Origin: an uncultured bacterium | GTDB lineage: Bacteria > Verrucomicrobiota > Kiritimatiellia > CAIVKH01 | NCBI GenBank assembly: GCA_937958885.1 | Contig: CALGMT010000015.1 | Span: forward strand, 4,280 to 68,279 | Length of the DNA stretch: 64,000 nt | Direction of reading: 5' to 3' | Part shown: positions 23,153 to 64,000 of the stretch, one piece after another | Layout: each line of letters opens with the position of its first letter | Position numbering within the stretch: the first letter of the stretch is position 1 | Translations under genes and position numbers: made by a program | The notes under the pieces: generated by a model | What the model was told of the DNA's origin: nothing | The model's input: only the letters and a program-made list of their open reading frames with translations | Database searches by the model: none

Positions 23153-26108
<2,956 letters not shown>

Positions 26109-26738: not shown

Positions 26739-28301
<1,563 letters not shown>

Positions 28302-38616: not shown

Positions 38617-38821
38617 CACCGCGGCGCCGGCTCTTCCCCCGCCCGTCCGCCGAAGACGGTTGGGCGAGGGGGGTGAGGGCTTCGACAACAGCCCCTATGA
38701 CCGCGCGCACCGAGCGCGGCGGTCTATGAATGACCCGGCGCCGCAGTGAGTGTCATATTCCACGAGTCGCCGCGCCGCTTGCCGCGTTGTGTTGGTTTCG
38801 CGCACTTGCTACGCTCCGTTT

Positions 38822-44801: not shown

Positions 44802-45092
44802 TCACAACACCGCCTCCGCGGGAATCGCGAAGGCGTGCAGCCGTTCGTCCGGATAGAGCCGGCTTTTGAGCGCGGACAGGCCGTCGATCACCGCGACGAA
44901 CTGCTCGGCGTTCAGCACGCTGAAGATCAGCGTTTCGCGGCCGGGGAAGGCTTGCGTGTCGAGATGCGCGCCGGTTGTCCCCATCCCGAGTACGTCGGGC
45001 ACTTCGGTGAAGGCGCGCGCGCCCCGCGCGCGAAGCACGTCCCGAATCTCGCGTTCGCGCGATTGCGGGCCAATCACGATGAGCATCTTCAT
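44802..45092 (-). CDS. P-II-like small protein
   Basis: ATG 45092 overlaps the RND stop (ATGA). 96 aa, MKMLIVIGPQSREREIRDVLRARGARAFTEVPDVLGMGTTG, with beta-alpha-beta periodicity like GlnB/DUF3240-type proteins. Confidence 0.65.
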   Translation of the reverse strand: MKMLIVIGPQSREREIRDVLRARGARAFTEVPDVLGMGTTGAHLDTQAFPGRETLIFSVLNAEQFVAVIDGLSALKSRLYPDERLHAFAIPAEAVL

Positions 45093-48000
45093 GATGGAAC
45101 CTCCGGCGTGCGGTCGCCGTAAATCAAATAGTACACCACAGGTATCACGACGAGCGTGAATGCGGTGGACACGAACAATCCGAAGATAAGCGACCAGGCG
45201 AGTCCGCTGAAGATCGGATCGAGCGTGATCGGCCACGCGCCGAGCAGCGTCGTGCCGGCGGTCAGCACAATCGGGCGGAGGCGAACGGCGCCGGATTCGA
45301 GGATCGCGTCCTTGATCGGACGCCCGCGCTCGACTTGCAGGCGGATGAAGTCGATCAGAATGATGCCGTTCCGCACGACAATGCCGGCCAGCGCAATCAT
45401 GCCGATCATGGCCGTCGCAGTGAAGAATACCGGATCGGGATAGCCTGCGACGGGCCGGTTCACCAGCAGGTTCAAAATCCAGAAGCCGGGCATGATGCCG
45501 ATCATGGTCAGCGGAATGGAAAGCATGATCACGCCGGGTAAAGCATACGAGCGGGTTTCGTAGACGAGCAGGACATAGATGCCGAGCAGCGCCGCCGCAA
45601 AGGCGAGTCCGAGATCGCGGAAGACATCCACCGTGATCTTCCATTCGCCCTCGCCGCTCCAGTCGGCGCGAATGCCATCGGGCAGCGGGTGCTTCTTGAA
45701 GTGCCGTTGCAGCGCGAGCACGGGATAGGCGGGGCCGCGGCCTGCCGTTTCGGCGGTCACATAGACCACGCGCTCGAGATTTTTGTGGAAGATGGTTTTG
45801 TCTTCAAGGCCCTCCCTGAATATGCCGATTTCGCCCAGTTGAACCAAATCGCCGCCTCGTCCTTTGACGGGAATTGTTTTCAGCCGCTCGACATCGGAGC
45901 GCTGGGCGCGGGGCAGTTGCAGGCGGATCACGGTCTCGTTCTGCTCGCCCGATTCGTGCAGGGTGCCGACATCCGCGCCGGCGAGCGCCATGCGCAGCGT
46001 GCGGACGGCGTCGTCCACAGATATGCCGTTTCGAGCGGCTTTATCGCGGTCGAGTTCGTATGTCACTTTTTTCTGGTCGGCTTCGACGTAGTCGTCCACC
46101 TCAACCACACCGCGCTCCGCGCGCATGCGCGCCTTGACGATCTCGGCGGCGGCGATGAGCTCGTCATAGCGGTGGTGCGGTCGCCCGTAAATTTCGGCGA
46201 CGATGGTGGCGAGAACCGGCGGTCCGGGCGGCACTTCCACGATCTTGACCATCGCGCCGTTGCGCCGGGCGACAGCTTCGACGTCGGGTCGGATGCGCAG
46301 CGCGATGGCATGGCTGTTCATGGCGCGCTTTTTGCGGTGTGCGAGGTTGATGCGTATATCCGCGACGTGCGGACCCTGGCGCAAGTAATAGTGGCGGACG
46401 AGTCCGTTGAAATCCATCGGCGAGGCAGCGCCGACAAGCGAGGTGAAATGTTCGATCTCCGGCACCGTGCGGAGAAGGTTTTCCAGATCGCGGACGACGG
46501 CGTCCGTGGCTTCGAGCGGCGTGCCTTCGGGGAGATCAACGATGAGCTGCAGTTCGTTCTTGTTGTCGAACGGCAGCATCTTTAGCGGGACGAGCAGCAG
46601 CGCCATCGCGACCGCCGCGAACAAGAGGCCGGCAACGATCCACAGCAAGCGACGCGCCTTTGCGCGCGAGTCGATGAAGGGACGCACGATGCGGGAATAA
46701 AAACGAAAGACGCGGGAGCCGCTCACGTTTTGCTCATCGGCATGCGCCTTAAATTTTGCGTTTTTGAGCATGATGCTCGAGACCCACGGCGTAATCATCA
46801 GCGAAACAATCATCGAGCTGAGCATCGCCAGCGGGACGTTCAGCGCCATGGGCCGCATGTAGGGACCCATCATGCCGGTGATGAAAAACATCGGCACGAA
46901 GGCGACCATCACGGAAAGCGTGGCGAGAATCAGCGGCGGCATGACCTCGTTCATCGCGGTTTGGATCGCGTCGAGCCGCGGCTGTTTGCCGATGCCGAGG
47001 TGGCGGTAGATGTTTTCCACGGCGACGATCGGATCGTCGACGAGCAGGCCGAGCGCGAGAATCAGCGCGAAGAGCGTGACGCGGTTGATCGTGTAGCCGG
47101 CGAGATAATTGACCAGCAGCGTGAGCGAATAGGTGATGGGCACGGCGAGCGCGACGATCAGGCCGATGCGCCAGTTCATCACCAGCGCGATGAGGACGAT
47201 CACCGTGATGATCGCCTCGCCGAGCGAGCCCACGAGATTGTTCACTTTTTCGTTGGCCGTTTGCCCGTAGTCGCGTGTGACAAGGGCCTCGACCTCATCG
47301 GGAATGATCGTGCCGCGCAGCGCGTCAATCATTTCGCGGATTGCTGCCGTCACGCGCACCGCATTGCTGCCTTTTTTCTTTGCGACGGCAATGGTGACCG
47401 CCGGCTGGATGTCAGATGATCGGGCCGAGGCGGGTCCGTATCCAAACCGGGAATAGGTGGCCGGTTCTTCGGGGCCGTCCACGATGTCCGCGACGTCGCG
47501 CAGGTAGACCGGCCGCCCCTCGTGCAGCGCAATCAGCAGGTCCTCCACCTCGCGCGCATTTCGCAAAAACGGTCCCGCGCTAACGCGCACGGTTTGGTTG
47601 GCCTGGTCGAAGGATCCGCTCTCCAGTTGCGCGTTCGAGGCCTGAATGGCCGCGGCGATTTCCCCGGGCGCCACGTGATAGGCCGCCATCCGATCGGCGT
47701 CGAGCTGAACCGTTACCATTCGGCGCTGGCCCCCGTGAATGGTAATCGCGGCGGTGTTGGGGATGTGCTGCAACCGCGCGACGACCTCTTCGGCGATGCG
47801 GTAGAGCTCGTGCGTGTCATAGCGAGCGCTTGTGAGCGCGATGCCCGCTACGGGCACGTCGTCCACCTCGATCGGCTTGATGACCCAGCCGGCGATGCCG
47901 GGCGTCGCTTTGTCCACATTCTGAAAGACCTTGTTGTACAATTTGATCAGGCTGGCCTCGCGGTCCTCGCAGACGAAGAAGCGGACCGTCACCACGGCCT

Positions 48001-48283
48001 GGCCGGGCATCGACATCGAGTAGACGTATTCGACGCCGTCGATCTGATAGAGCAGCCGCTCGAGACGCGAGGCGACGAGTCGCTCGACCTCCTCCGCGCT
48101 GCCGCCGGGGTACTGCACAAAAACATCGGCGAGCGGGACGACGATTTGCGGCTCTTCCTCGCGCGGGGTGGCGATGAGCGCAATGCCGCCGGCCGCGAGC
48201 GCGACGAACATCAGCAGGATGGCAAGATTCCCGCGGAGGAACGACTCGATCAGCCGGCCGATGCCTGAATGCGGGCCGCTCAT
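45089..48283 (-). CDS. efflux RND transporter permease subunit
   Basis: 1064 aa, 12-TM AcrB/CzcA architecture with two large periplasmic loops. Confidence 0.95.
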   Translation of the reverse strand: MSGPHSGIGRLIESFLRGNLAILLMFVALAAGGIALIATPREEEPQIVVPLADVFVQYPGGSAEEVERLVASRLERLLYQIDGVEYVYSMSMPGQAVVTVRFFVCEDREASLIKLYNKVFQNVDKATPGIAGWVIKPIEVDDVPVAGIALTSARYDTHELYRIAEEVVARLQHIPNTAAITIHGGQRRMVTVQLDADRMAAYHVAPGEIAAAIQASNAQLESGSFDQANQTVRVSAGPFLRNAREVEDLLIALHEGRPVYLRDVADIVDGPEEPATYSRFGYGPASARSSDIQPAVTIAVAKKKGSNAVRVTAAIREMIDALRGTIIPDEVEALVTRDYGQTANEKVNNLVGSLGEAIITVIVLIALVMNWRIGLIVALAVPITYSLTLLVNYLAGYTINRVTLFALILALGLLVDDPIVAVENIYRHLGIGKQPRLDAIQTAMNEVMPPLILATLSVMVAFVPMFFITGMMGPYMRPMALNVPLAMLSSMIVSLMITPWVSSIMLKNAKFKAHADEQNVSGSRVFRFYSRIVRPFIDSRAKARRLLWIVAGLLFAAVAMALLLVPLKMLPFDNKNELQLIVDLPEGTPLEATDAVVRDLENLLRTVPEIEHFTSLVGAASPMDFNGLVRHYYLRQGPHVADIRINLAHRKKRAMNSHAIALRIRPDVEAVARRNGAMVKIVEVPPGPPVLATIVAEIYGRPHHRYDELIAAAEIVKARMRAERGVVEVDDYVEADQKKVTYELDRDKAARNGISVDDAVRTLRMALAGADVGTLHESGEQNETVIRLQLPRAQRSDVERLKTIPVKGRGGDLVQLGEIGIFREGLEDKTIFHKNLERVVYVTAETAGRGPAYPVLALQRHFKKHPLPDGIRADWSGEGEWKITVDVFRDLGLAFAAALLGIYVLLVYETRSYALPGVIMLSIPLTMIGIMPGFWILNLLVNRPVAGYPDPVFFTATAMIGMIALAGIVVRNGIILIDFIRLQVERGRPIKDAILESGAVRLRPIVLTAGTTLLGAWPITLDPIFSGLAWSLIFGLFVSTAFTLVVIPVVYYLIYGDRTPEVPS

Positions 48284-49272
48284 CAGCGCGCCTCCGCCAG
48301 GATGGCGTCGCCGTCCGCCAGCCCGGACAGGATTTCGATCCGGTCGCCGCGCGCGGGCCCGGTTCGGACCAGGCGATCGATCACGCGCTCATCGCGCACC
48401 AACCCGACAAACTCCAACTGGCCCACGCGCCGAATGGCGGAAGCCGGTGCCATCATCAAGGGGCGGGGCGTTGTTTCCACCCACAATCGCCCAAAGGCGC
48501 CGGGTAGGAGATCGGCCTCCGGCCGATCAATGTTCACGCGCACGATCTGACTACGGCTGCGGGGGTCGATTTCGCCGACAATCTCGGCGACGATGCCCGT
48601 TGTCATCAGCGCGGGGTGTTCGATTGTGACCGCGACCGGCGCGCCAAGCGAAAGGTATGGAATCAAACGCACCGGAACAGCCGCCTCGACCCGCATGCGC
48701 GAGGGGTCGTAGAGGGACATGAGTTCCTGGCCGGGCGCGGCGAGATCGCCGACTTCGACTCGGCGCTCAATCACAATCCCATCGAGTGGCGCGGTGATGA
48801 CCGTGTAGGAGCGAAGCACGCGAATGCGGTCCACTTGGGCGCGCGCAGTGTGGAAGGCGGATTCGGCGGCGGTCAGTTCCTGCTCGCTGGCGGAGCGCGC
48901 TTCGAAAAGCTGTCGGGTGCGGTTGTAGTCCGCCTCGGCCTGCCGCAGTTGGGCCTCAGCCGCGGCAAGTTGCTCCTGGATTTCGCGGTCGTCGAGCACC
49001 AGCAAGACTTGGTCCTTCGCGACGCGTTGTCCGGCGTTGGCGCGAACTTCGCGCACCTCCGCCTGCAGGCGCGACGCGATTTTGACGCGCTCCGCCGCCG
49101 AAACCGTGCCGACGACATCGACGCCGGGCGTATGCGATTCGAGCGCGAGCTCGACGACCGATGCGCCCGGCGGAAGCGGACGGCCTGGCGCATGGTCCAC
49201 ACGGCCTGGTTCGATTTTAGGTCCGCCGCAGCCGGCCAATGCCAGCACGGCAACAATCAGTACTCGATGCAT
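48283..49272 (-). CDS. efflux RND transporter periplasmic adaptor subunit
   Basis: ATG 49272 gives the lipobox signal MHRVLIVAVLALAGC. Coiled-coil hairpin and barrel-sandwich regions present. The stop overlaps the RND start by 1 nt. Confidence 0.9.
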   Translation of the reverse strand: MHRVLIVAVLALAGCGGPKIEPGRVDHAPGRPLPPGASVVELALESHTPGVDVVGTVSAAERVKIASRLQAEVREVRANAGQRVAKDQVLLVLDDREIQEQLAAAEAQLRQAEADYNRTRQLFEARSASEQELTAAESAFHTARAQVDRIRVLRSYTVITAPLDGIVIERRVEVGDLAAPGQELMSLYDPSRMRVEAAVPVRLIPYLSLGAPVAVTIEHPALMTTGIVAEIVGEIDPRSRSQIVRVNIDRPEADLLPGAFGRLWVETTPRPLMMAPASAIRRVGQLEFVGLVRDERVIDRLVRTGPARGDRIEILSGLADGDAILAEAR

Positions 49273-49540
49273 AAAACGGCCTCCACAGTTGAGGGATACA
49301 CGCCTATTGGAGACACCGCCCCTCTCCAAGGTTCCCCAAAAGTGCTCGGATGAGACGCCGTGCGTTTCGCCCCGCATTCGAGGAACTCCAAATTACGGGG
49401 GGTGGCATCCGACATCGGGCGATCGAGTGTGGTTGTGTGCCGCTGGTTTCAGTTCAACGCGCGTGCCAAGACTATCCGAAAGCCCATGTGGCGTATTCCT
49501 CTGGATGCAGTGCATTTTGCCGAATTAATCATTTTCTAAC

Positions 49541-49598: not shown

Positions 49599-50462
49599 AT
49601 GAGGTTTGACATGGTTAACAAACAGATTGTGCTACTGCTCGTTGCCAGCACGTTAGCCTTTTCGCCTCACGCGCATGGGACAATAGCCTTCGATTCGGCC
49701 TCCGATCCCGCGTACGGTGGCGGGTGGACTAATGGGTCGAATGGCGGGTACGGATTCGGACCGTGGAATCTCAGTCATCCATCGCCATCGACCACGTTTG
49801 GAATTGGACCTTCGACGGCGAACGGCGATGGGCTAGATGACGGCGTGTATAACGGTGTGCCGAGCGACGGCGATATCGGCATCGCGCTGCGTTTGCAGGG
49901 AACAAACGCTACCGCAACAGCGGGGCGATTGTTTTCATCGGGTCGACTGGCCATCGGCCAGACGTTTTCCATCGATTTTGATAACGGGGATTATGGCTAT
50001 GAAACCCGATATGCCATACAGCTTTATCAAACTGATTCCAGTTTTAACCCAGTTGATCTCGCATTTGAATTATTTCTACACTTAGGCTCTTTCTACGGAT
50101 ATTTGGACACTGGGTTTGGCACTACGACGTTGATTGAATACGGGACGGAAGGACTGCGATTCTCGTTCAGTCTCACCGGGGAAATTGATTATGGCACCGC
50201 AACGAACTACAGCTATGTCGCTTCGTTGGTGCGCGCCGACGGCGTTTCCACGTCCTGGACAGGCGAGGTGGCGTATCGCCCCGACTATCTGCAACTCGAA
50301 CATTCTATCCCGATAGGAGCGGATGCAACGGTGAACGGCTTCTATGTCAACAATCTATCGATAGTTCCGGAACCTTCCACGCTGGCAATTCTTGTATGTG
50401 GAGCGGGATGTCTTTGGTTGCGTACGCGATATCTGGCGCATAGGGCGAGGGTCAAGGGATAG
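49599..50462 (+). CDS. PEP-CTERM sorting domain-containing protein
   Basis: The C-terminus VPEPSTLAILVCGAGCLWLRTRYLAHR is a PEP motif, a TM helix and a basic tail. N-terminal signal present. ATG 49611 (GAGG upstream) is an alternative start. The gene is visibly less GC-rich than its neighbours. Confidence 0.85.
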   Translation: MRFDMVNKQIVLLLVASTLAFSPHAHGTIAFDSASDPAYGGGWTNGSNGGYGFGPWNLSHPSPSTTFGIGPSTANGDGLDDGVYNGVPSDGDIGIALRLQGTNATATAGRLFSSGRLAIGQTFSIDFDNGDYGYETRYAIQLYQTDSSFNPVDLAFELFLHLGSFYGYLDTGFGTTTLIEYGTEGLRFSFSLTGEIDYGTATNYSYVASLVRADGVSTSWTGEVAYRPDYLQLEHSIPIGADATVNGFYVNNLSIVPEPSTLAILVCGAGCLWLRTRYLAHRARVKG

Positions 50463-50702
50463 GCCGTTTAGGGGCTGTTGCCCAAATCATGTTCCCCCAA
50501 AACACCTTGCCCATCGGGCGCCGCAATGCGGAGTTAACCCACCCCGCCCTTCGGGCACCCCTCGGGAGGAGGGGACTACTCATTCGGTCCCCTCCCGGGA
50601 GGGGTCCGCGAAGCGGGGGGGGTGTTTTTCCCGGATCCGAACCGACCTTTGCTTTGCGAATATAGAGAACTTCTATCAACAGCCCGTTTGGGCAACAGCT
50701 CC
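50462..50702. mobile_element. MITE-like element with 16-bp terminal inverted repeats
   Basis: GGGGCTGTTGCCCAAA (50471-50486) pairs with TTTGGGCAACAGCTCC (50687-50702), 15 of 16 complementary. An internal GC hairpin lies at about 50549-50607. A partial second copy is at 42645-42780. Confidence 0.65.
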
Positions 50703-50804
50703 ACCGAGACCCATGCAGAGCTTCCAAACGACTGTGGCGCTTACGGGCTTCTGGGGCCGGCGGGCGGAAGATTGACAAAATCAGGCGTTTGGAGAATGAT
50801 CCTG

Positions 50805-50993
50805 ATGTCTATGAAGAGTAACCCTTCCAAAGACACGGCGGTTAACAGCGGTGTGACCGGGGCAAAGACCCCGCCTCCCAAAGGCATAACGCGCCGCCGG
50901 GCGATCAAGGTCGGCGTGTTCTCGCTGGCGACCGCATTGCCGATTGTGATGACCATCGCACCCACCGAGGCGCGTGGCTCCGACCCCTCTTAA
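50805..50993 (+). CDS. candidate substrate peptide, twin-arginine-signal-like, ending in Ser (62 aa)
   Basis: MSMKSNPSKDTAVNSGVTGAKTPPPKGITRRRAIKVGVFSLATALPIVMTIAPTEARGSDPS. GGAG lies 10 nt upstream, third codon positions are G/C-rich, and the 3' end overlaps the kinase start. ATG 50796 and 50811 are alternative starts. Confidence 0.5.
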   Translation: MSMKSNPSKDTAVNSGVTGAKTPPPKGITRRRAIKVGVFSLATALPIVMTIAPTEARGSDPS

Positions 50994-51813
50994 TCGCGAC
51001 CCTGTCACGCAGCGCTGTTTCGGCGGGTCGATCATTGTTTCCCTTCAGGCTCCTGCGCCGGTGATCGCGGCGTATGAGCGGCTTTTCGCAGCGTTCCCGT
51101 CTTCCGCGAACGGCGAGGAAACGGAACGGCTTGAAATCCGAGTGATTGCCCAGGATGCCCGGTGGGCGGTTGAGCTGGACGGCCTGCGCGCGGCTGCCTT
51201 TGAGACGGCAGCGCACATCCCGCCGTTTCTCGAAACGCTGGTGTGCCAATTTCTGATCCAACACCGCGCGGACCGTATCCCGATCCACGCCGCCGGCGTG
51301 GCGTCGGCGGCGGGTGTCGTCCTGATGCCGGGCGAGAAGGGGAGCGGCAAGTCCACGTTGAGTCTGTGGCTGGCTCAGCGCGGCTACGCTTATTTCGGGG
51401 ATGAATTGCTCTGGATCGATCCGACCTCCGCACTGCTGGAGCCGTATCCGAAGGCCGCGGCGATCAAGGCGGGGTCGTTCGCCCTTTTTGACGAGGCCGA
51501 GATCTTCGTCAGTCCGACGCGCGGGCCGCTGCGTTATTTCGCGCCCGGTGAAAGGGCGGCGCCGCTGGATACGGCTCGACCCGCCGCGCGGATCGTTTTC
51601 CCGCATTTCAATCGCGAAGAGCCGGCCGGGGTGTATCCGTTGTGTCCGGAGGAAACCTTGCTTTATTTGTCGCAGATGCTTTTCGGCGGGCTGGCGCGCA
51701 GGCCCGAGCGCTTTCCCGCCCTCGCGCGGCTCGCGCAAACGCCCGCGGTACTCGCTGTGTATCGGGATGCGCGCGAGATCGAGGAGTGGTTGCGCGCGGA
51801 AGTCCTATCATGA
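50974..51813 (+). CDS. HPr-kinase-related (HprK C-terminal domain-like) kinase
   Basis: GTG start. HAAGVASAAGVVLMPGEKGSGKSTLSLWLAQRGYAYFGDE fits the HprK P-loop region. Confidence 0.85.
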   Translation: MAPTPLNRDPVTQRCFGGSIIVSLQAPAPVIAAYERLFAAFPSSANGEETERLEIRVIAQDARWAVELDGLRAAAFETAAHIPPFLETLVCQFLIQHRADRIPIHAAGVASAAGVVLMPGEKGSGKSTLSLWLAQRGYAYFGDELLWIDPTSALLEPYPKAAAIKAGSFALFDEAEIFVSPTRGPLRYFAPGERAAPLDTARPAARIVFPHFNREEPAGVYPLCPEETLLYLSQMLFGGLARRPERFPALARLAQTPAVLAVYRDAREIEEWLRAEVLS

Positions 51814-53150
51814 AGCGCGAGATCGAGCATCTGTGCGAGTGTCTCTGGTGGGCGATCGGTCAACGCGGGCCCGCGACGGCGGCCGAGCCGGATTGGTCCC
51901 GCTGGCTTGCGCTGGTGGACGAACACAAGCTCGGCGCATTCCTCTACAGCCGCTTGCGCGGCCGCGCCGAGTGGCCGGAACAGGTGCGATCCGCGCTGGC
52001 CGCGCAGCACGTCACCTCGGGATTTCTCAACGGGCTGCGCCTGCGCGAGCAGGCGCGCATCCTCGCGCGGATCCTCCCCGCGGCGCGGTGTGTGGTGCTC
52101 AAGGGCGCCGCGCTTGCGCTCACGCGCTACGCCGAAGCGGCGGAGCGCGATATGGTGGACTTGGATTTGTTTTGCGCGCGGCGCGAAGATGTCGATACAG
52201 CGCTCGACATCCTGCGCGCGAACCAGTACGCGCCGACGCGCGCGATACCCGGCCACCATCATTTGCCGCCGATGCTGCATCGCTCGGGGCGCCTTTCGGT
52301 CGAGCTGCACACCAATTTGACGACCCCCGGTTTGCCGTCCGCGTTTCTTGAACAATTCTTCGCGGATCGCGTGCACGTTTCGACACCCGGTGGAATCGCC
52401 GTGCCGGTGGCCGATCGCGCGCACCTTCTTTTTCATCATGGACTGCACACGCTGAAAGACCCGATTGAGAGCCCGCTGCTCCGCAATTTATTCGAGATCG
52501 CGTGGATGGCCTCCGACTTCGGTCCGGACGAGTGGACGCGGTTCACCCGCATCGCGGAATCGAGCGGGCGCAGCGAGGTCGTGCGCCGCGCGTTGGCGCT
52601 CGCGCGCGATTATTTTCCGGTGGACTTGCCGCCGTTCAAGCGGCCCCGCTACAGCTCGATCGAGTTTTGGGCGCGCCGTCGACTGGGCTGGATCGAGGAC
52701 GCCATGCGCCCGGCGACTCGTCGCTTGCGCCACATCGGCGTGAAGCATTTCGACCGGATGCCGTCCGGACGCTGGCGCACGGATGCGCTCGACATGGCGC
52801 GTGTGGCGGCGGTCAGCGTGAAGAACGGGATTGCGCATCATGCGCGCGCGCGGCTCGCGCCTCTTCGCGGGGCGCTGCTGCATCGGGTGGAGGCGCATGA
52901 ACTGGCCTTTGGCGAACATGCCGCGCTGTTGCGGCCCGAATCGGGACAGGTGTTTGTGTTGCGCGGCGATGCGATCGCCGTGTGGCGGGCGGCGGCGGCG
53001 CCCGTGTCGGGCGCGGAACTCTACCGCCGCCTGCTCGCGCAGGGCCTGCCGCCGCGCGCCGCGCGTCGCGCGGTGCGCTCGCTGTTGGCACTGGAGCTGA
53101 TCGCGCCGGCGTCAAATACTGCTGGAGCGCACGGCGCGCCGGACCTATAA
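51810..53150 (+). CDS. nucleotidyltransferase family (PF14907-like) protein fused to a C-terminal PqqD-like RRE domain
   Basis: ATG 51810 overlaps the kinase stop (ATGA). The N-terminal part has VVLKGAALALTRYAEAAERDMVDLDLF. The last ~85 aa (ALLRPESGQVFVLRGDAIAVWRAAAAPVSGAELYRRLLAQGLPPRAARRAVRSLLALELI) fit the PqqD pattern. Confidence 0.85.
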   Translation: MKREIEHLCECLWWAIGQRGPATAAEPDWSRWLALVDEHKLGAFLYSRLRGRAEWPEQVRSALAAQHVTSGFLNGLRLREQARILARILPAARCVVLKGAALALTRYAEAAERDMVDLDLFCARREDVDTALDILRANQYAPTRAIPGHHHLPPMLHRSGRLSVELHTNLTTPGLPSAFLEQFFADRVHVSTPGGIAVPVADRAHLLFHHGLHTLKDPIESPLLRNLFEIAWMASDFGPDEWTRFTRIAESSGRSEVVRRALALARDYFPVDLPPFKRPRYSSIEFWARRRLGWIEDAMRPATRRLRHIGVKHFDRMPSGRWRTDALDMARVAAVSVKNGIAHHARARLAPLRGALLHRVEAHELAFGEHAALLRPESGQVFVLRGDAIAVWRAAAAPVSGAELYRRLLAQGLPPRAARRAVRSLLALELIAPASNTAGAHGAPDL

Positions 53151-55641: not shown

Positions 55642-57228
55642 TCAGGAGAATTCCGCGATGACGAGGGTGTAGTCGTCGCTGGCGGTGATGGCGCCGCGGT
55701 GGCCGGCGAGCGCGCGGGAGAGCCGCTCGATCACGACGGGGGCAGGCTCGGCGCCGTGAGCGCGCAGCAGCGCCAGGAAGCGCTCGTCGCCGAACTCCTC
55801 GCCCGCGCTGTTCATCGCCTCTGTGATCCCGTCGGTATAAAACACGAGCTTGTCGCGCGCACCGAACGAGCAATCCGCTTCGGGCCAGTCGCCCGCTTCG
55901 CACAGTCCGATGGCCGCGCCGGTCGGCATCGCGATCGGCGTCGCGACGCCGCCCGACGCCAGCACCGGCGGCGGATGTCCGGCGCTTGCGAGCCGGCAGA
56001 CGGAGGCGCGCAGGTCGAACACGGCATAGATGATGGTCACGAACTTATCCGACGGGATTTCGCGGCCCACGAGGCGGTTGATCCGCGCGAGCGCAGCGCC
56101 GGGCCGGCCGACGATCGGGTCGGCGTCGCGCTCGGCTTTCATGGCTTCGACGGTCATTTTCACCAGTCCGGAGATGAGCGCGGCGCTCGCGCCGTGCCCG
56201 GCGACATCGGCGACATAGAGGACGATTCGATCATCATCCACCTGGAACGCGTCATACAAATCGCCGCCGAGCATTTCGCAGGTGACGAAGCATCGGTCGA
56301 ACGAAAGTCGATCATGGCGCGGGAACTCGCGCGGAAGCAGGCCGAGTTGCACATCCTGTGCGAGTTTGAGTTCTTCCTCGTATTGTCGGTTCATCCGTTC
56401 CAGTTGCGCGTTGGCGGCGTGTAGCAGGCGGTTGCGGGTTTCCAATTCGCGCGTGAGGGCCTCGTTGCGCGCGAGGGCGAGGTGTTGCTTTCGATACAGC
56501 ACGAGCACGACGGTGAGCAGCGCGTTCATCGCCAGCGCGAGCACCCACGCGGCGCGGCGCACGGCGGCTTTCTTGGACCGAACCGTATCCGCGAGCACAT
56601 CGACGCCGACGATGGCGGCCGTTCCGCCATCCGCGCCGCGCACAGGCGCGTAGCCGGAGATCGAATCGGGATAGGGCGGGTCGGCGGTGACCGCCTCGTC
56701 CGCGGCGGGCGCATGCCACGCGGCGACCATGGCGGGGAAGTCGGTCGCGTCGTAGGGCGTGCCGGGCTGTTGTGCGCGCTCGTCGTCGTCGATGACGCCG
56801 TTGCCGTTTCGGTCCCGTTCGCGCTCGTCCACGATGTAGAGGTAGGCGGTATCGGGCGAGCCGGGCGTCGTATCGCGCCGCATGACGTAGGCGTAGCGCA
56901 CGTCGGGATTTGCCGCGGTCACGTTGTCGATCAACTCCTGGATGCGCTGGAAACCGGGCCGCGTCATATCGTCGGGTCCATGTATCTGCGCCAGCTCATC
57001 CGGATCGAGCGCGGCGGCCAGGGCGACGGCGATGCCGCGCGCTTGTGCGCGTATTTCATCGAGGACGGCTTTATCGGCGGTGCGCGTCATCCATCCGAAC
57101 AGCATGATGACGGCGAGCCAGCAGAAGATGAGGATGGCGAGTCGCGTGTGCAGATGGCGGGGCACCGGAACCCGCATGCGCAGGCGCCGCCGCTCTGTGG
57201 ACTCCCAGCCTGAAGCCCCGCCCGACAT
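55642..57228 (-). CDS. PP2C/SpoIIE family protein phosphatase with N-terminal extracytoplasmic sensor domain
   Basis: Start at ATG 57228 (57177 is an alternative). TM, a Cache-like region (ISGYAPVRGADGGTAAIVGVDV), a second TM, a coiled coil, then the SpoIIE domain (GGDLYD, YVADVAGHG, FYTDGITE). Confidence 0.85.
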   Translation of the reverse strand: MSGGASGWESTERRRLRMRVPVPRHLHTRLAILIFCWLAVIMLFGWMTRTADKAVLDEIRAQARGIAVALAAALDPDELAQIHGPDDMTRPGFQRIQELIDNVTAANPDVRYAYVMRRDTTPGSPDTAYLYIVDERERDRNGNGVIDDDERAQQPGTPYDATDFPAMVAAWHAPAADEAVTADPPYPDSISGYAPVRGADGGTAAIVGVDVLADTVRSKKAAVRRAAWVLALAMNALLTVVLVLYRKQHLALARNEALTRELETRNRLLHAANAQLERMNRQYEEELKLAQDVQLGLLPREFPRHDRLSFDRCFVTCEMLGGDLYDAFQVDDDRIVLYVADVAGHGASAALISGLVKMTVEAMKAERDADPIVGRPGAALARINRLVGREIPSDKFVTIIYAVFDLRASVCRLASAGHPPPVLASGGVATPIAMPTGAAIGLCEAGDWPEADCSFGARDKLVFYTDGITEAMNSAGEEFGDERFLALLRAHGAEPAPVVIERLSRALAGHRGAITASDDYTLVIAEFS

Positions 57229-57281
57229 GGCGGTAGAATGACAAGGCGCCGTCTCGCTTGGCGAGGCTTTTTGGATCGGCG

Positions 57282-58412
57282 TCAGGCGGAGCAGGCGCGG
57301 CGGTAGGCGTCGATTGTCAGGCGCGCGGTTCGTTCCCAGGTGAAGTGGGCGGCGCGCCGCAGACCGCGACGCGCGAGGTCTTCCGCGATTTCGGTGCGCG
57401 TGAGGACCTCGGTGAGCGCATCGACGAGCTGCGGAAGGATCGCGGGGTCCACCTTGCGCGCGGCGTCGCCGGCGACTTCGGGCAGCGAGCCGATGTTGCT
57501 GCAGACACAGGGGGTGCCGCAGGCCATTGCTTCGAGCAGGGTGAGGCCGAAGCCCTCGTAGCGGGACGGCAGGCAGAAGACGTCGGCGGTCTGGTATTCG
57601 CGGATAAGCTGGTCCGGCGCGACGTAGCCGGTCCAATCGACGTACGGCGCGAGGCCGAGCTCCTGCGCGCGGCGCGGGGCCTCGGGGTAGCGCGGATCGG
57701 GCGAGCCGACCACGCGCAGCCGCGCGGGCACGCCGTTTGCGCGCACGCCCGCGAGCGCCTCGACGAGGCGCGGGAGATTCTTGTAGGGATCGGAGCGTCC
57801 GACGTAGAGGATGATTTTCTCCGCGCGATCGCGCGGACGCGCGCCCGGCCGGTAGTTCGGCGAAACGCCTTCCGGAATGGCGACCACGCGGTCGGCGCGC
57901 GCGGGCGGGATGCGCAGTTCCTGAATGATGTCGCGCCGTGTGGACTGGCTCGGCGCGATGATCAGGTCGGCGCGCGCGGCGATGCTCAACATGAGGCGGC
58001 GATAGAGCGGAAACAAACGGGATTTCCGCGATTTGGGCGCGTGGTCGGGGAAGAGCAACGGGATGAGGTCGTGGATGGTGACCACGCGGCGCACGCGGCC
58101 GGGCCGGAGCAGCGGCATCATGTAGTTGGTCGAGTGGAACACATCGAAGCCGCGGCGAGACAGCAACCCCGGCAGCAGCGCCTGCCCGCGGGGACTAAAC
58201 ACCCCGTACGGCACGCGCAGTGCGCGGAAGCGCGGCGAGAGATCAAAGCGCGCGGCCGCGCGCGTGCGCTCCTGCACATCGACCCGGTCGAACAGCAGCG
58301 TATATTCATTTTCGTGGTCCACGCGCGCGAGTGCGCGGATCAGCTCCTGCGTGTAGAGGCCGATGCCGGAGAGCTCCGGGAAAATCCAGCGCGCGTCGAT
58401 GCAGATGTTCAT
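57282..58412 (-). CDS. glycosyltransferase family 4
   Basis: 376 aa, GT-B fold. The C-terminal domain has LPSRYEGFGLTLLEAMACGTP. Confidence 0.9.
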   Translation of the reverse strand: MNICIDARWIFPELSGIGLYTQELIRALARVDHENEYTLLFDRVDVQERTRAAARFDLSPRFRALRVPYGVFSPRGQALLPGLLSRRGFDVFHSTNYMMPLLRPGRVRRVVTIHDLIPLLFPDHAPKSRKSRLFPLYRRLMLSIAARADLIIAPSQSTRRDIIQELRIPPARADRVVAIPEGVSPNYRPGARPRDRAEKIILYVGRSDPYKNLPRLVEALAGVRANGVPARLRVVGSPDPRYPEAPRRAQELGLAPYVDWTGYVAPDQLIREYQTADVFCLPSRYEGFGLTLLEAMACGTPCVCSNIGSLPEVAGDAARKVDPAILPQLVDALTEVLTRTEIAEDLARRGLRRAAHFTWERTARLTIDAYRRACSA

Positions 58413-59581
58413 AATGACGCGGCCGCCTCGCCGTGTTTCGCTCGGAGGCCCTCTTGTTCGCGGTAGTCCGCGAGCGCGGCTTCATAGACCGCCCAGGTGC
58501 GGCGGGCGGTCTCGTTCCAGGTGTAGCGCGCGGCCCGCTCCGCGCCGCGGCGGCGCAGGTTGTCGAGCATGGCCGGCGCGCTCAAGAGCGCGCCGATTTC
58601 GGCGGCCCAGCGACCCGCGTCGATCGCGTCGAGCACGAGCGCGCCGTCGCCGCAGATTTCAGCGAGCGCGCCGCCGGGCGAGACGACGGCAGGCGTGCCG
58701 CACGCCATCGCCTCGAGGGGCGGGAAACCGAACCCCTCATAGAGCGAGGGCAGTACAAACAGTTCCGCGCCCCCGTAGAGCGCGGGCAGGTCGGCCTCGG
58801 CCAGGTCCTCGATCAGGCGGATGCGCGAACGGCGCGTCGAGCGCGCGATGCGGTCGAGGATCGGTTGATATTTCCAGCCGCGCCGTCCCGCGATCACGAG
58901 GTCGCCGTCGAATTTCGACAGGCGCTCGAAGACCTCGATCAGAAACGGATAGTTCTTGCGCGGTTCGAGCGTGCCGACGGTCAGCAGATAGGGCCGCTGC
59001 AGGTCGAGCCGTTTGCGCAGCGCGCGGACGACCTCGGCCGGGGGGCGGTGCATCGCCGGGTCGAGGCCCGAGGGAATCGCGTGGAGTTTCGTTGCGGGCG
59101 CGTCGAGCAGTTCGGCGACCTCGCGCGCGGTGAACGCGGAGACGGTGATGATCGCGTTCGCGCGCCGCACCGTCTCGCGAATGTGCGCGTTGAGATAGAC
59201 GAGGTTCCGCGCCTCGATGGTTTCCGGATAGCGCAGAAAAGCGACATCATGGATTGTGACGACCGACGCGCCGCGCGCCAGGGGGGGGCGGATGAAGTTC
59301 GGGAAGTGATAGACATCCGCAGGTCCCGCGAACCAGTCGTAGGGCGGCCAACCGAACGTCTTCCACGCGAATTGAGGCGCGCGCCCGGGCATCCAGCGGC
59401 ACCGGCGCAGCTCCGCGCCTTCGACATCGAACGGCGCCCCGCGCCCGCGGAAATCGAAGTGGAACAGGGCAAGCTCGCGCGGTCCGCGCGTCGGGCCGAG
59501 GTGTTCCGCGAGCATCTGGGTATAGCGTCCGACCCCGGCGCGCGCGCCGAGCGTGGACTGGATGTCGAGGCAGACCTTCAT
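58409..59581 (-). CDS. glycosyltransferase family 4
   Basis: 390 aa with LPSLYEGFGFPPLEAMACGTP. Has a 4-nt overlap with the downstream GT4 gene. Confidence 0.9.
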   Translation of the reverse strand: MKVCLDIQSTLGARAGVGRYTQMLAEHLGPTRGPRELALFHFDFRGRGAPFDVEGAELRRCRWMPGRAPQFAWKTFGWPPYDWFAGPADVYHFPNFIRPPLARGASVVTIHDVAFLRYPETIEARNLVYLNAHIRETVRRANAIITVSAFTAREVAELLDAPATKLHAIPSGLDPAMHRPPAEVVRALRKRLDLQRPYLLTVGTLEPRKNYPFLIEVFERLSKFDGDLVIAGRRGWKYQPILDRIARSTRRSRIRLIEDLAEADLPALYGGAELFVLPSLYEGFGFPPLEAMACGTPAVVSPGGALAEICGDGALVLDAIDAGRWAAEIGALLSAPAMLDNLRRRGAERAARYTWNETARRTWAVYEAALADYREQEGLRAKHGEAAASL

Positions 59582-59762
59582 ACGCCGCGCGCAGTGTAGC
59601 GAGTCCCCCGCCGCCGTTCCAGATATGCCGCGTTCGTTTTTCGCGCGCGCGATTCAGGCTGCGCTCCGTCATCGGGGGCAACGGCCTTCCTCTTCCGCGG
59701 GCGCAGCGTCGGAACTACAGCGCTCCCAATACGATGCCGGCGACACGCGTCCGGCGCGCACG

Positions 59763-59791
59763 TTGACAGCGGGCGCGGCGCGTGCGAATAT
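59763..59791 (+). promoter_or_regulatory. candidate sigma70-type promoter of the FHA gene
   Basis: TTGACA (59763-59768), a 17-nt spacer, then GAATAT (59786-59791). GGAG lies 9 nt before ATG 59817. Confidence 0.45.
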
Positions 59792-59816
59792 CGATTTTCA
59801 ACTGGAGCGAGATATC

Positions 59817-60317
59817 ATGGCTGTACTCATGGGCATGTCCGGCGACGTCAAAGGCAAGACATACCCGATCGATGACAACGGATTGACGCTTGGCCGGAGC
59901 ACAGACAATACGGTCGCCATCAACAACGCGACCGTGTCCGGCCATCACGCGACGATCCGGCGCGAGGGCGACGCCTATATCTTGCGCGATCTCGGTTCGA
60001 CGAACGGCACCCGCGTCAATTCGCGCGAGGTGAAAGAGGCCGCGCTGCGCCCCAAGGATCTGATCCAGGTCGGGTCCGTCGAGTTCCTGTTCAATTCCGA
60101 GGCGATGAGCTTCGAGGACGCTCAGGCCGCCATGACGCGCACCGAGGTGCTCGAAAGCCAGGGCTCGGTCTCGATGCCGGAGTCGTTCGACAACATTTCG
60201 CCGTTCGGCGCGCGCCGCCGCGAGAATCTGACCTTCTGGGTTCCGCTCATCGTCGCGCTGGGCCTGCTCGCGCTCGGCGTGGTCATCTATCTGTTTATCA
60301 AGCTGTTCTCGGCCTGA
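59817..60317 (+). CDS. FHA domain protein with C-terminal TM anchor
   Basis: ATG 59817. LTLGRSTDNTVAINNATVSGHHATI...DLGSTNGTRVN is a canonical FHA core. C-terminal helix FWVPLIVALGLLALGVVIYLFI. Confidence 0.88.
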   Translation: MAVLMGMSGDVKGKTYPIDDNGLTLGRSTDNTVAINNATVSGHHATIRREGDAYILRDLGSTNGTRVNSREVKEAALRPKDLIQVGSVEFLFNSEAMSFEDAQAAMTRTEVLESQGSVSMPESFDNISPFGARRRENLTFWVPLIVALGLLALGVVIYLFIKLFSA

Positions 60318-60978: not shown

Positions 60979-63663
60979 CTACTCTGCGATGATCCGCAGC
61001 GCTTCGCCGAATTCTCCCGCGGGATGCAGCCAGCCCCGCAGGGTCCACGCGCCGGGATCGGTCGGCGTCCACACCAGCGAGGCGCGCGCGCCCGGCGCGG
61101 TTTCGCGAACGGGCAGCATCTGGGTGCGCCCGGCGTCCGACCGCGCGCGGACCCAGACGGCGCCGACGTGACCGGTGATGGACGGCGACCATGTGGCGAC
61201 GCCGGTGTTCAGCCACTCAAGTTGAACCGGTTGTCGCGCGCGTCGGCGCAACGGTTCCGATTCCGGCGCCGGCTCCAGCCACTCCGCATTCACGTACGCC
61301 AGGGGCGCCGGCGCAGAGATTGGTTGATTGTCCAGGCCGGCCGCGGGGAGGTCGCGCGTGCCGCGCCCCCAGGCGGTCGGCCGCATTTCCTCGATCGTGT
61401 CCGCGCGCGCCTCATCGACATAGCGGTCGCCCCAGCTCCGCCACGCCGCGTCGGTTTCCGGCTCCGCTTCGCGCCCGCGCCAGACCGGCGTCGGCGCGGG
61501 TGCGCGCCGCCACTCGTGCACGCGACCGCGCAGTGCGTCGCCCCCGGGCCGCCAGCCCGTGTCGGGATTCACCAAGCCGATGTCGAGATCGGACGGCCCG
61601 CGCGGGCCGCCCGCGAGCGACGCATACATCAACCCCGCTGCACGCGCGCGCTGGAGCGCGCGTCCGGCGGCGCTCAACGCCTCCGCCTGACGCCGCAAGT
61701 CGTCGGCAGACGGAGGATAGGTCATCGGGGCGCCCGCGTGCCGCCACAACACAGGTTTGCCGCCCGCGGCCCCGCGGGCGTGCGCGGTGCGGAATTCCAA
61801 AAGCCCCGGCGCGGGCGGCTCCATGGCGGCGGGAATCGTGCGCGTGACGAAGTCGAGATGATGCGCGGGGGGCGGAAGCGGGTACTCGTCGCCGCCGATC
61901 GCGGTGAGGAGCGCGCCGTGCGCGCGCGTTTGAAGGAATCGGCGCGTATCGCGCATGCGGCGGCTCGTATGATCGTGAAGGAATCGCGCAATCGCGCGGC
62001 GCAGCGCCGGCGGCGTCTCAGCGGCGCGCGCGTGATCGGGATCCGGCAGCACGGCATCCGGATCGGCATTGAGCAGAAACTCCGCGTGCGCAGGGTCGCC
62101 GTACTGTTCCGCGATCCATGCCCGCCATGCGGCGCGGAGCGCGGTTCGGCTTCGCTCGTTATTCGGATCGATCGCGAGGTCGATGGCGACGGCGAACACG
62201 CGGTGTCCGCGCGAAAGGCGGAGCGCGGCGAGTTGGGCGTCGGCTTGCGCCCAATCGGGCGTCCACGGAGAGAGGGCCGGCATCCGAATCAGCGCCCACA
62301 ACTGCCGCGGCCGCATCTCGTCGAGCAGATGGCGCAGTTGCGGGGCTTGCGCGGGGGTCGTGTAGTCGAGTTCGACGAGGTTGAAGCCCGCCTCGCGGAA
62401 TAGATCGAGTTCGCGCAGCGCGCGGGCCATGTCGTAGCGATCGAGGTCGAGCGGGTTCCCCGGCGCGCCGGCGAAGACCGGATCGAAAGCCGCGCCGAAG
62501 AGCGCGAGCGGGCGTCGCCCGACGATGAAGCCCGCGCCGCGCACGCCGAGGCGCTCGTCGGAGGGGTCGTCCGCGGGGCGCTCGTCCGGCAGCAGGCGAA
62601 TGCGCTGGGTGAATTCATCGAGCGATTTCACGCCCGCGGCGTCGGTCAGCGAGAAGCGGATCCTCACGTCTTCCGCGCGGGCGATCGCGCGCGGCGCTGA
62701 GCCGAGAAAGAGCGAGGTGGAAACCATCGCGATGGGGCGTCGCGCGCGGTCGCCGTCGAGCGGCTCCGCCAGCCGGCGAGTGACGACCCCGGCATCGTTT
62801 TCCATCTCCACCGAAATCCGCCAAGGCCCGGCCGTCGGCGACGCGGCGGCGATGCGCAGCGGAATCTCGATCGAGTCCCCCGGGCTCATGGCCGCGCGAT
62901 CGATGCCGGCGTCGAGTATATACTGACGCTCGTATAATCTGCGCGCCGCGCGGCGGAGCAGTGCGCGTTGCGCGGCGGCATGCGCCGACGCGGGCGCCCA
63001 GCCGATCCAGCCCCACGCGCGGAGCGGCCCTTCGGCGGGCGCTTCAATCAATAGCGAGGCCGGCCATCCGCGCGGGTGGCCCGGGGGTTCGCGCGCCTCC
63101 GCGAGCGGAATCCAGCGCCGCATCTTGCCGGTCGCGCCCGTTGCCGTTTCCCGCGGGAACGGACTTTGGAATCGCAGCGCCCGCGGCGCCTGAAGCATGC
63201 CGCCGGAAAGCCCGCGAATTTCTCGGGCGTTCAGCGTGTAGTACTCGCGGAGCGGGCGCAGCATGGGCAGCGCCACGCCGTCGCCGCCGCCCGCGGGATC
63301 GAGGCCCCAGAAGAGGACGGGCCCGCCGCGCTGGATATGGCTTGCGAGCTGTTGCCAGTGCGCGGGAGTCAGCAGATGCATTTCGGGGACGACGAGCGCC
63401 GCGCCGTCCTGGCGAAGCCGCGGCCCGGCGGTAACCAGTTGCTCGACCCGAAGGCGACGCGCGTCCGGAAAAGCGGCGCGCAGGATCGATTCCGTGTCCG
63501 CGTGCATCGCGCCCTCGCCGGCTTGGAGGATGACAACCGCGTCGGGGTCCGGCGCGGGGCCCGCATCCCACGGTTCTTCTCGTGAAGAGCAGCCTGCGAG
63601 CATCAGCGCGCACAGCGCGGCAATAACCGCAACGCCGCCGGCGAATGAGCGCGCGTCCCGCAT
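60979..63663 (-). CDS. large lipoprotein with glycoside-hydrolase-like TIM-barrel region
   Basis: ATG 63663 gives the lipobox signal MRDARSFAGGVAVIAALCALMLAGC. The central region resembles GH5/GH42-type barrels (FNLVELDY...). The assignment is weak. Confidence 0.6.
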   Translation of the reverse strand: MRDARSFAGGVAVIAALCALMLAGCSSREEPWDAGPAPDPDAVVILQAGEGAMHADTESILRAAFPDARRLRVEQLVTAGPRLRQDGAALVVPEMHLLTPAHWQQLASHIQRGGPVLFWGLDPAGGGDGVALPMLRPLREYYTLNAREIRGLSGGMLQAPRALRFQSPFPRETATGATGKMRRWIPLAEAREPPGHPRGWPASLLIEAPAEGPLRAWGWIGWAPASAHAAAQRALLRRAARRLYERQYILDAGIDRAAMSPGDSIEIPLRIAAASPTAGPWRISVEMENDAGVVTRRLAEPLDGDRARRPIAMVSTSLFLGSAPRAIARAEDVRIRFSLTDAAGVKSLDEFTQRIRLLPDERPADDPSDERLGVRGAGFIVGRRPLALFGAAFDPVFAGAPGNPLDLDRYDMARALRELDLFREAGFNLVELDYTTPAQAPQLRHLLDEMRPRQLWALIRMPALSPWTPDWAQADAQLAALRLSRGHRVFAVAIDLAIDPNNERSRTALRAAWRAWIAEQYGDPAHAEFLLNADPDAVLPDPDHARAAETPPALRRAIARFLHDHTSRRMRDTRRFLQTRAHGALLTAIGGDEYPLPPPAHHLDFVTRTIPAAMEPPAPGLLEFRTAHARGAAGGKPVLWRHAGAPMTYPPSADDLRRQAEALSAAGRALQRARAAGLMYASLAGGPRGPSDLDIGLVNPDTGWRPGGDALRGRVHEWRRAPAPTPVWRGREAEPETDAAWRSWGDRYVDEARADTIEEMRPTAWGRGTRDLPAAGLDNQPISAPAPLAYVNAEWLEPAPESEPLRRRARQPVQLEWLNTGVATWSPSITGHVGAVWVRARSDAGRTQMLPVRETAPGARASLVWTPTDPGAWTLRGWLHPAGEFGEALRIIAE

Positions 63664-63664
63664 G

Positions 63665-64000
63665 TCAGCCTCGCCCATCGCGCGCGCCGCGATTGGCGGC
63701 TTTGACTTTGCCCGACAGGTCGCGCGCGAGGATCTTTTGCAATTTGACCAACAACAGCGGGTTGAGTTGTTCGAGCCGGATGAGCTTCTCCTGCGGCCAC
63801 GCGAGCAGCCGCACGGCGCCGTCGGCAATCACATCGGCGGAGGCCGCATCGCCGGTGACAAAGCTCATCTCCGCGACAAACGATCCGCGTCCGAGCCGCG
63901 CCAGGACGACGCTGTCGTTGCGGACCACGACTTCGCCGTCGAGCAGCAACACGAGCTCGTGCTGTTTCTCGCCCGCGCGAATGAGCTGGCGCCCGTCCAC
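63665..64000 (-). CDS. cyclic nucleotide-binding domain protein (C-terminal part; gene continues beyond the window)
   Basis: IRAGEKQHELVLLLDGEVVV...LGRGSFVAEMSF matches the cNMP-binding beta-barrel. Truncated by the window edge. Confidence 0.75.
   Translation of the reverse strand: MDGRQLIRAGEKQHELVLLLDGEVVVRNDSVVLARLGRGSFVAEMSFVTGDAASADVIADGAVRLLAWPQEKLIRLEQLNPLLLVKLQKILARDLSGKVKAANRGARDGRG

Follow-up and report, generated by a model that had tools for sequence, protein, structure and literature searches.

In the biosynthesis of RiPPs, peptides that are made on ribosomes and modified post-translationally, RiPP recognition element (RRE) domains bind the leaders. In lasso peptide pathways, homologues of the HPr kinase (HprK) phosphorylate the C-terminal serine of linear precursors with little regard for the remaining sequence, and in the pseudomycoidin pathway the 'uncharacterised nucleotidyltransferase' PsmN, whose DxD motif is essential, is required for the addition of one or two 162-Da (hexose) units to the serine phosphate. 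So far, the only role in which HprK-like kinases and PF14907 nucleotidyltransferases are understood is the optional decoration of lasso peptides, and most of the thousands of related kinases (16,204 clusters at E<=1e-3 in an exhaustive profile search against 50%-identity clusters, with 3,173 at E<=1e-10 and 50 at E<=1e-30) are without an assigned substrate. Here we analyse a three-gene cassette containing members of both enzyme families, at positions 50805-53150 (+) of a 64-kb stretch (64,000 nucleotides) of contig CALGMT010000015.1 from an uncultured bacterium of the Kiritimatiellia; this whole stretch is referred to below as the window. The cassette consists of a small open reading frame (ORF), an HprK-like kinase and a nucleotidyltransferase with a C-terminal RRE-like domain, and it is best read as a stand-alone RiPP-like peptide-modification system, in which known enzyme families are combined in a new self-contained architecture with an unexpected type of leader. 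The 62-aa peptide encoded by the small ORF is probably the substrate of both enzymes. An initial annotation of this DNA had already invoked the lasso precedents, and both are real (serine phosphorylation by HprK homologues and the PsmN-dependent addition of a 162-Da hexose); what is new here is that the conserved 'leader' of the peptide appears, judging from its sequence, to have the anatomy of a twin-arginine translocation (Tat) signal peptide. The three-gene set recurs across phyla, conserved and compact, and we infer its function throughout.

Comparison with described systems

The closest described relatives are the lasso tailoring enzymes. With PsmK/PsmN (pseudomycoidin) and with PadeK, ThcoK and SyanK (paeninodin and relatives) the cassette shares an HprK-family kinase, which in those pathways acts on a serine at the C-terminal end, and with the PsmK/PsmN pathway it also shares a nucleotidyltransferase and an RRE/PqqD module, PsmN being likened by its description. 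In contrast to lasso tailoring, the cassette has no cyclase, no B protease and no ATP-binding cassette (ABC) exporter, its RRE is fused to the nucleotidyltransferase, its proposed core has 3-7 residues in most members of the family and its leader is Tat-signal-like.

Among curated families, the same logic of a kinase with a PqqD chaperone is found in the NCBIfam HPr-rel-A system (the TIGR04352 kinase and the TIGR04353 PqqD family peptide chaperone), the name under which the initial annotation had placed kinase/nucleotidyltransferase/PqqD trios. TIGR04352, HprK_rel_A ('HprK-related kinase A'), was indeed the best curated family for all subgroup kinases tried, including our kinase (72.6 bits, E 2.7e-20) and its relatives from the homologous loci L010, L018 and L021 (63.6-94.5 bits). 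However, the score of our kinase is far below the TIGR04352 equivalog cut-off of 200 bits, neither the whole 446-aa nucleotidyltransferase nor its C-terminal 106 aa matched TIGR04353 (cut-off 35 bits), and the PqqD part is fused rather than free-standing. Because the scores lie below the curated cut-offs, the cassette is a related but distinct variant, and its membership of HPr-rel-A was not upheld.

Additionally, several homologues of the kinase are labelled ScmC (TIGR04249/PF27840) in precomputed Pfam annotation, a label that in NCBIfam denotes the SynChlorMet cassette protein ScmC. The SynChlorMet cassette is defined by two radical S-adenosylmethionine (SAM)/SPASM enzymes. The likeness is weak or faint, as the window kinase gave no match to ScmC at E<=0.01 and the sole NCBIfam match of the C-terminal 106 aa of the nucleotidyltransferase was ScmD (TIGR04248; E 0.036, 14.3 bits against a cut-off of 100). 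The radical SAM/SPASM partners are also absent from the window, in which Pfam scans of about 40 further ORFs found no radical SAM gene. The pathways of pyrroloquinoline quinone (PQQ) and mycofactocin (PqqA/PqqD and MftA/MftB) have in common with the cassette a short precursor, processing confined to a few C-terminal residues and presentation by a PqqD-family RRE. They rely on dedicated peptidases and on radical SAM chemistry, and what they make stays in the cytoplasm or becomes a cofactor, whereas the cassette has a kinase, a nucleotidyltransferase and a signal-like leader.

Lastly, TorD-type cytoplasmic chaperones bind a specific Tat signal and delay export until cytoplasmic maturation has ended. 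Our comparison with the Tat proofreading chaperones TorD, DmsD and NapD is a functional analogy only and wholly conjectural: the fold is unrelated (an RRE winged helix), and maturation here would be modification of the tail instead of cofactor insertion. Literature searches on the function of HPr-rel-A, TIGR04352 and PF14907, and on Tat signals as RiPP leaders, returned nothing relevant, which is weak evidence given their incomplete coverage. We know of no precedent for a RiPP with a general-secretion-signal leader, or for peptide modification coupled to Tat proofreading.

Organisation of the cassette

The cassette and the elements discussed below are as follows.

50540-50630 (+): GC-rich hairpin followed by a U-run, GUGUUUUU; the fold of 50463-50804 has -146.9 kcal/mol, z -2.89
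50791-50795 (+): Shine-Dalgarno-like GGAGA, read from the sequence, 9 nt 5' of the ATG at 50805
50805-50993 (+): putative precursor peptide gene, ATG at 50805, TAA at 50991-50993, 62 aa, MSMKSNPSKDTAVNSGVTGAKTPPPKGITRRRAIKVGVFSLATALPIVMTIAPTEARGSDPS
50889-50909 (+): twin-arginine motif T29-R-R-R-A-I-K35, aligned with the TRRxFLK-type motifs of the family
50910-50978 (+): h-region V36-P53 (including ALPIVMTIAP) and c-region T-E-A-R-G, from conservation in the family alignment
50979-50990 (+): tail S59-D-P-S62, proposed core and modification site, from tail composition in the family
50974-51813 (+): HprK-like P-loop kinase gene, GTG start, 279 aa, stop TGA at 51811-51813
51331-51357 (+): kinase P-loop G120-EKGSGKS-T128, from the alignment with homologues
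51810-53150 (+): nucleotidyltransferase gene, 446 aa, ATGA overlap with the kinase stop
51885-52619 (+): nucleotidyltransferase domain PF14907, residues 26-270 of 446 aa
52869-53108 (+): PqqD/RRE-like domain, predicted to bind peptide, about residues 354-433, from the structural model

The ORF list and the sequence gave the same coordinates and overlaps for the three same-strand ORFs as had been described initially: the kinase GTG at 50974 falls 20 nt inside the small ORF (a 20-nt overlap, 50974-50993), and the ATGA lies at 51810-51813. The alignment with eleven homologues offered no later kinase start that would retain the conserved N-terminus. The possibility that the small ORF is spurious was ruled out by its coding-frame GC content at third codon positions (0.75 in its own frame and 0.51 and 0.60 in the other two) and by the 34 homologues across phyla that were recovered with a profile.

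On the 5' side, the hairpin at 50540-50630 is likely the intrinsic terminator of an upstream PEP-CTERM gene, and as a likely terminator it would mark the left boundary of the cassette's transcription unit. A regulatory RNA in the 340-nt upstream spacer was considered and dropped, since Rfam gave nothing significant for the hairpin or the spacer (weak opposite-strand matches to mraW and BjrC80, E 0.18-0.27). On the 3' side, dapF, which has a ribosome-binding site of its own, begins at 53180.

The kinase and the nucleotidyltransferase

From the letters alone, the two enzymes had been described as an HPr-kinase-like protein and as a nucleotidyltransferase with a C-terminal PqqD/RRE domain. Profile and structure searches substantiate the first two descriptions, and they support the third at the level of fold but not of sequence. 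The HPr-kinase-like signature, GEKGSGKSTLSLWLAQRGYAYFGDE, is located at kinase residues 120-144, and H105, the P-loop G120-T128 and D143 are invariant in the kinase alignment. In addition to the TIGR04352 match, a profile of 12 kinase homologues matched the HprK/P structures 1ko7, 2qmh and 1jb1 in the PDB (E about 1e-4) over the His/P-loop/GDD region, and Foldseek matched the AlphaFold model (predicted local distance difference test score, pLDDT, 83) to ATP-dependent phosphoenolpyruvate (PEP) carboxykinases and to HprK/P with probabilities of 0.99-1.00. PEP carboxykinase and HprK/P belong to one superfamily. The protein thus has the histidine, the P-loop GxxGxGKS/T, the acidic GD[DE] motif and the HprK-like fold of the HPr kinase/phosphorylase superfamily, and it looks catalytically competent because H105, the P-loop and D143 are invariant.

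The 446-aa protein scored 113.4 bits with PF14907 (NTP_transf_5; cut-off 31.2) and aligned to model positions 2-249 of 249, and the pattern VVLKGAALAL...DMVDLDLF, which had first suggested this family, corresponds to residues 94-121. Both the K98-G99 motif and the D117-x-D119 motif are present (the DxD at 52158-52166), and K98, G99, D117, D119, H149, H151, E165 and H167 are invariant among 12 homologues. The AlphaFold model (pLDDT 87) resembled nucleotidyltransferases in Foldseek, including 4ok0, MenT1/MenT4, TM1012 and ANT(2'')-Ia.

The C-terminal domain of about 90 aa is modelled as three or four strands (residues 356-384) followed by three helices (386-427), a beta3-alpha3 arrangement, with pLDDT values of 80-91 over residues 350-430. 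Its predicted fold matched the lasso RRE TbiB1 with bound leader (5v1v; TM-score 0.67, root-mean-square deviation 2.6 A, probability 1.00) and also the RRE regions of MibB (5ehk) and CteB (5why). By sequence, the C-terminal 106 aa scored below the gathering threshold of PqqD, PF05402 (16.2 bits against 23.4, E 0.014), and a weak PF05402 match is precomputed for one homologue (P0011). The PqqD/RRE assignment of this domain holds, then, on its modelled fold and not on its sequence.

The peptide family

A profile built from seven peptides retrieved 29 small proteins, and together with those derived from the loci 34 sequences were analysed. The window peptide is a member of this family, with profile E-values of 1e-7 to 1e-21 for most members, and one relative is annotated as Myxococcota. 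The peptides share a plan consisting of a variable hydrophilic N-region, an RR motif, an h-region, a c-region and a tail. The RR motif ranges from TRR[RK]AIK to the textbook TRRxFLKKSG. The h-region is 14-20 aa long and mildly hydrophobic in nearly all of the 34 (mean hydropathy about 1.1-2.5; three longer values are parsing artefacts), and its core, ALP[LI]V.T[LI].P, is strikingly conserved. The c-region reads [TK]EA[RH][AG] or [DSG]KARA, both of the form A-x-A/G with a basic amino acid, and 34/34 peptides carry an A-[RH]-[AG] site; in the window peptide the site is A-x-G, resembling a signal peptidase I site. P53 and A56 are invariant, and P46 and R57 are at least 90% conserved. Nowhere is the family more conserved than in the h/c segment, which is likely the sequence that the RRE would recognise.

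By comparison, the tail is short and variable. In most members it has 3-7 residues, such as SDPS (window), QSS, QETEGS, QSSSEG and TGAS, and the short tails are composed almost wholly of S, G, Q, E, T and D. Longer tails occur in one lineage with 9-16 residues starting [AG]GS[CH]G, in another with 60 residues starting AGSWS and in a single sequence with 114; long-tailed forms span 55-158 aa. The expectation that the upstream ORF would end in serine was borne out in part: a C-terminal serine is common (20/27 short tails) and a serine lies within the first 7 tail residues in 34/34 peptides, but with the remaining short tails and the long-tailed forms a universal C-terminal serine was discarded as the defining feature of the family. 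A conserved leader followed by a variable short tail is the pattern of conservation expected of RiPPs.

A proposed mechanism and the case for Tat export

In the mechanism that we propose, the 62-aa product of 50805-50993 would be the substrate. The RRE domain on the nucleotidyltransferase would bind the conserved leader segment, TRRRAIK followed by ALPIVMTIAPTEARG, the translationally coupled HprK-like kinase would transfer phosphate from ATP to a serine of the tail (S59 or S62), and the PF14907 domain would cap that phosphate or the serine itself with a hexose or a nucleotide, as PsmK/PsmN do on their lasso peptide. Given a leader built like a Tat signal peptide, export of the modified peptide would most likely run through the housekeeping Tat translocase, and signal peptidase I would cut after A-R-G/A to leave a tiny modified oligopeptide (SDPS) outside the cytoplasm. 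The RRE domain could act as a Tat-proofreading-like chaperone that retains the signal until modification is complete. The enzymes are soluble, have no signal sequences and depend on nucleoside triphosphates, so any modification would precede export and occur in the cytoplasm; the Tat route takes cargo completed in the cytoplasm. Moreover, a Tat-type leader would offer a possible explanation for the missing protease and exporter, whose tasks could fall to the housekeeping Tat system and signal peptidase I. Binding, phosphorylation, the second modification, Tat export and cleavage are each steps that we infer, and the full scheme with Tat export included is put forward tentatively.

Several observations on the family are consistent with a Tat leader. 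By inspection, the RR motif, the h-region and the A-x-A/G site are found in essentially all 34 peptides. Hidden Markov models (HMMs) of Tat signals also detected part of the family: TIGR01409 (TAT_signal_seq) matched 10/33 members (best E 9.8e-5), PF10518 matched three, and others matched the Tat leaders of formate dehydrogenase, HydA, NapG and DsrO. One member is named Tat signal protein by NCBI. Furthermore, at L018 and L019 a TatA/B/E gene follows the cassette on the same strand, and the next ORF at L019 (...LTEHLGELRGR...) presumably encodes the TatC N-terminus.

Other observations weigh against this mechanism and have to be set beside these. The window's own peptide (TRRRAIK ... ARG) did not match the Tat-signal HMMs, so its Tat assignment rests on homology and inspection; its RR motif has Ala where Phe is usual, and in one sub-group of peptides (KEAHG) position -3 relative to the predicted cleavage site is occupied by Lys. 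Tat genes adjoin the cassette only in the L018/L019 lineage, in which they may simply be the housekeeping tat operon. The h-region is conserved in a way unlike ordinary Tat signals and might therefore serve recognition only, in a peptide that is never exported. A mature product of only 3-7 residues would be unusually small, and the L001 and L007-9 lineages carry the enzyme pair without an adjacent peptide gene.

These points bear directly on a reading in which the tail is modified under RRE guidance as above, the RR-hydrophobic segment being a recognition leader or membrane anchor without Tat export, and in which release, if any, would depend on unlinked factors. Such a peptide would be compatible with an h-region (ALP[LI]V.T[LI].P.EA) far more conserved than in ordinary Tat signals, with the failure of the window peptide to match any Tat HMM and with the lack of nearby tat genes at most loci. 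We consider it unlikely, since several sub-groups have textbook TRRxFLK motifs together with A-x-A sites, tatA-tatC lie directly downstream in the L018/L019 lineage, and an alternative protease or exporter is conserved at no locus.

If the leader is indeed a Tat signal, the cassette would represent a RiPP with a general-secretion-signal leader, in which covalent peptide modification is coupled to Tat proofreading, and this would explain some orphan RiPP-like cassettes that lack a protease and exporter of their own. It is possible, if doubtful, that RiPP biosynthesis here follows a new logic: one Tat signal would also be the leader that the RRE recognises, a kinase/nucleotidyltransferase::RRE complex in the cytoplasm would phosphorylate and then glycosylate or nucleotidylylate a 3-7-residue core, and secretion and leader removal would be left to the Tat translocase and signal peptidase I of the housekeeping machinery. 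The secreted phospho-linked oligopeptide may be a signal, a metal binder or an envelope component. A minimal expressible three-gene system with a four-residue candidate core makes the chemistry of the nucleotidyltransferase directly testable.

Homologous loci and the identity of the substrate

The conservation of the small ORF was what the initial annotation had looked to as a test of its reading, and the neighbourhoods of homologues did show it. Fourteen non-identical loci with this kinase and the nucleotidyltransferase::RRE protein were collected and annotated consistently with HMMs built in the analysis; they come from Verrucomicrobiota and Kiritimatiellae metagenome-assembled genomes (MAGs), one Deltaproteobacteria MAG and metagenome contigs. 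A homologue of the small ORF lies immediately 5' of the kinase in 12 of them. The peptide and kinase genes overlap or nearly abut in the window and at L006, L010, L016 and L020, the gap is <100 nt in the others checked, and the kinase and nucleotidyltransferase genes show the 4-nt start/stop overlap wherever coordinates were checked. The recurrence of this gene order in unrelated contigs, with the 4-nt overlap where it was checked, argues for more than chance. The fused nucleotidyltransferase::RRE is rare (14 matches in a word-indexed search), and scans with patterns from the kinase alignment gave five loci each from genome and metagenome contigs, so that the census is small.

Fusions among the same domains were also found. 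At L021 (119-2875) an HprK_rel_A-like kinase (389 aa) carries a fused PqqD domain at its N-terminus and is followed by a PF14907-like nucleotidyltransferase, and P0014 is a kinase::nucleotidyltransferase fusion of 632 aa; these fusions suggest that the three functions are linked. Two or three paralogous copies of the peptide gene stand ahead of the enzymes at L018 and L019.

A different reading would make the small protein an ordinary Tat-exported or membrane protein, with the enzymes acting on a small molecule, a glycan or an envelope precursor and the PqqD-like domain serving another or a regulatory purpose. The lineages without an adjacent peptide gene (L001 and L007-9) would fit it, as would a same-strand dapF behind the cassette, seen in the window, L001, L002 and L007-9; relatives with the nucleotidyltransferase fold also act on aminoglycosides and tRNA. 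We nevertheless regard it as decidedly unlikely. The peptide gene is linked in 12/14 loci and overlaps or nearly abuts the kinase in several, the domain fused to the enzyme is predicted to have the RRE fold, a peptide-binding module, and dapF synteny is limited to related lineages of the Planctomycetes-Verrucomicrobia-Chlamydiae (PVC) type, being absent from L003, L005, L006, L010, L015, L016 and L018. For the same reason dapF/mazG synteny was set aside as a functional clue.

Three further observations concern relatives of the cassette. In the Kiritimatiellae MAG of L001, tandem 32/63-nt repeats (TTTCCATGCCATGGAAA...) occupy 4925-5135, 5' of the kinase, at the usual position of the peptide gene. 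A VKOR-thioredoxin/DsbA fusion gene lies 3' of the nucleotidyltransferase on the same strand at L010 (8125-9444) and L016 (9466-10770), lineages that carry a 98-aa peptide; these peptides contain no cysteine. L013 (4686-10039), from a Binatia MAG, encodes a free-standing lasso-type PqqD protein, an HprK_rel_B-like kinase and a PF14907-like nucleotidyltransferase; the tail of its PqqD ORF matches a lasso leader model weakly, and a 761-aa ORF, read by eye from the sequence, is taken to be a glycosyltransferase. This locus is a different relative of the same enzyme set.

Genomic surroundings

The statement of the initial annotation that no lasso cyclase, leader protease or exporter is present agrees with the Pfam scans, which found no Asn-synthase-like cyclase, transglutaminase-like (B-type) protease or ABC transporter in the 64-kb window, and for the homologous loci looked up the gene tables list none within the 5-7 kb flanks. 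In this regard, the cassette could be thought to hold the tailoring genes of a lasso pathway, with the cyclase, protease and exporter encoded at another place in the genome, as most of what is known of both enzyme families comes from lasso clusters and the modelled RRE is closest to a lasso B1 protein. A lasso core consists of a 7-9-residue ring plus a tail, for which 3-7 residues are insufficient. With the missing genes absent from the window and from those flanks, and with a tail of 4 aa here and 3-7 in most members, below lasso length, this explanation is very improbable.

A toxin-antitoxin or phage-defence module, suggested by the MenT1 and MenT4 toxins and the AbiEi complex among the top Foldseek matches of the nucleotidyltransferase, is the least credible explanation, because PADLOC matched none of the three proteins, the context is one of housekeeping chromosomal genes, the likeness to MenT/AbiEi is at the level of fold only (13-16% identity), and neither a conserved, predicted RRE domain nor a signal-like peptide belongs in such systems.

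The stand-alone peptide-modification cassette that we favour is embedded among genes that include tgt, trmD, ffh, prfB, serS, tyrS, rpsA, pyrF, icd, dapF and mazG, among other housekeeping genes. By Rfam, the window contains a complete rRNA operon at 22965-28303 (-), with 5S, 23S, spacer tRNA-Ile(GAT) and tRNA-Ala(TGC), and 16S, which indicates that it is ordinary chromosome. Further tRNA genes are tRNA-Arg (17666-17740) and tRNA-Ser (33297-33389).

Immediately upstream, 49599-50462 (+) encodes a 287-aa protein whose C-terminus carries a PEP-CTERM sorting signal (VPEPSTLAILVCGAGCLWLRTRY), for which the NCBIfam PEP-CTERM matches are sub-threshold. The association with PEP-CTERM/exosortase genomes that had been mentioned for such trios comes down to this single gene and was not sustained: the terminator-like hairpin parts it from the cassette, no PEP-CTERM neighbour was seen at the other loci, and a functional tie is unsupported. 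A tie to the divergent resistance-nodulation-division (RND) efflux pair at 45089-49377 was likewise rejected, since the pair recurs only in the close relative L002.

Large ORFs of 404-949 aa at 13672-15672, 36291-38519, 38750-39964 and 60979-63828 have a coding-like codon bias and no Pfam match at E<=1e-4. On the 3' side of the cassette, 55642-60317 encodes a SpoIIE-type PP2C phosphatase (664 aa), two family 4 (GT4) glycosyltransferases and a forkhead-associated (FHA) domain protein, and the SpoIIE-type phosphatase and the glycosyltransferases recur in L002.

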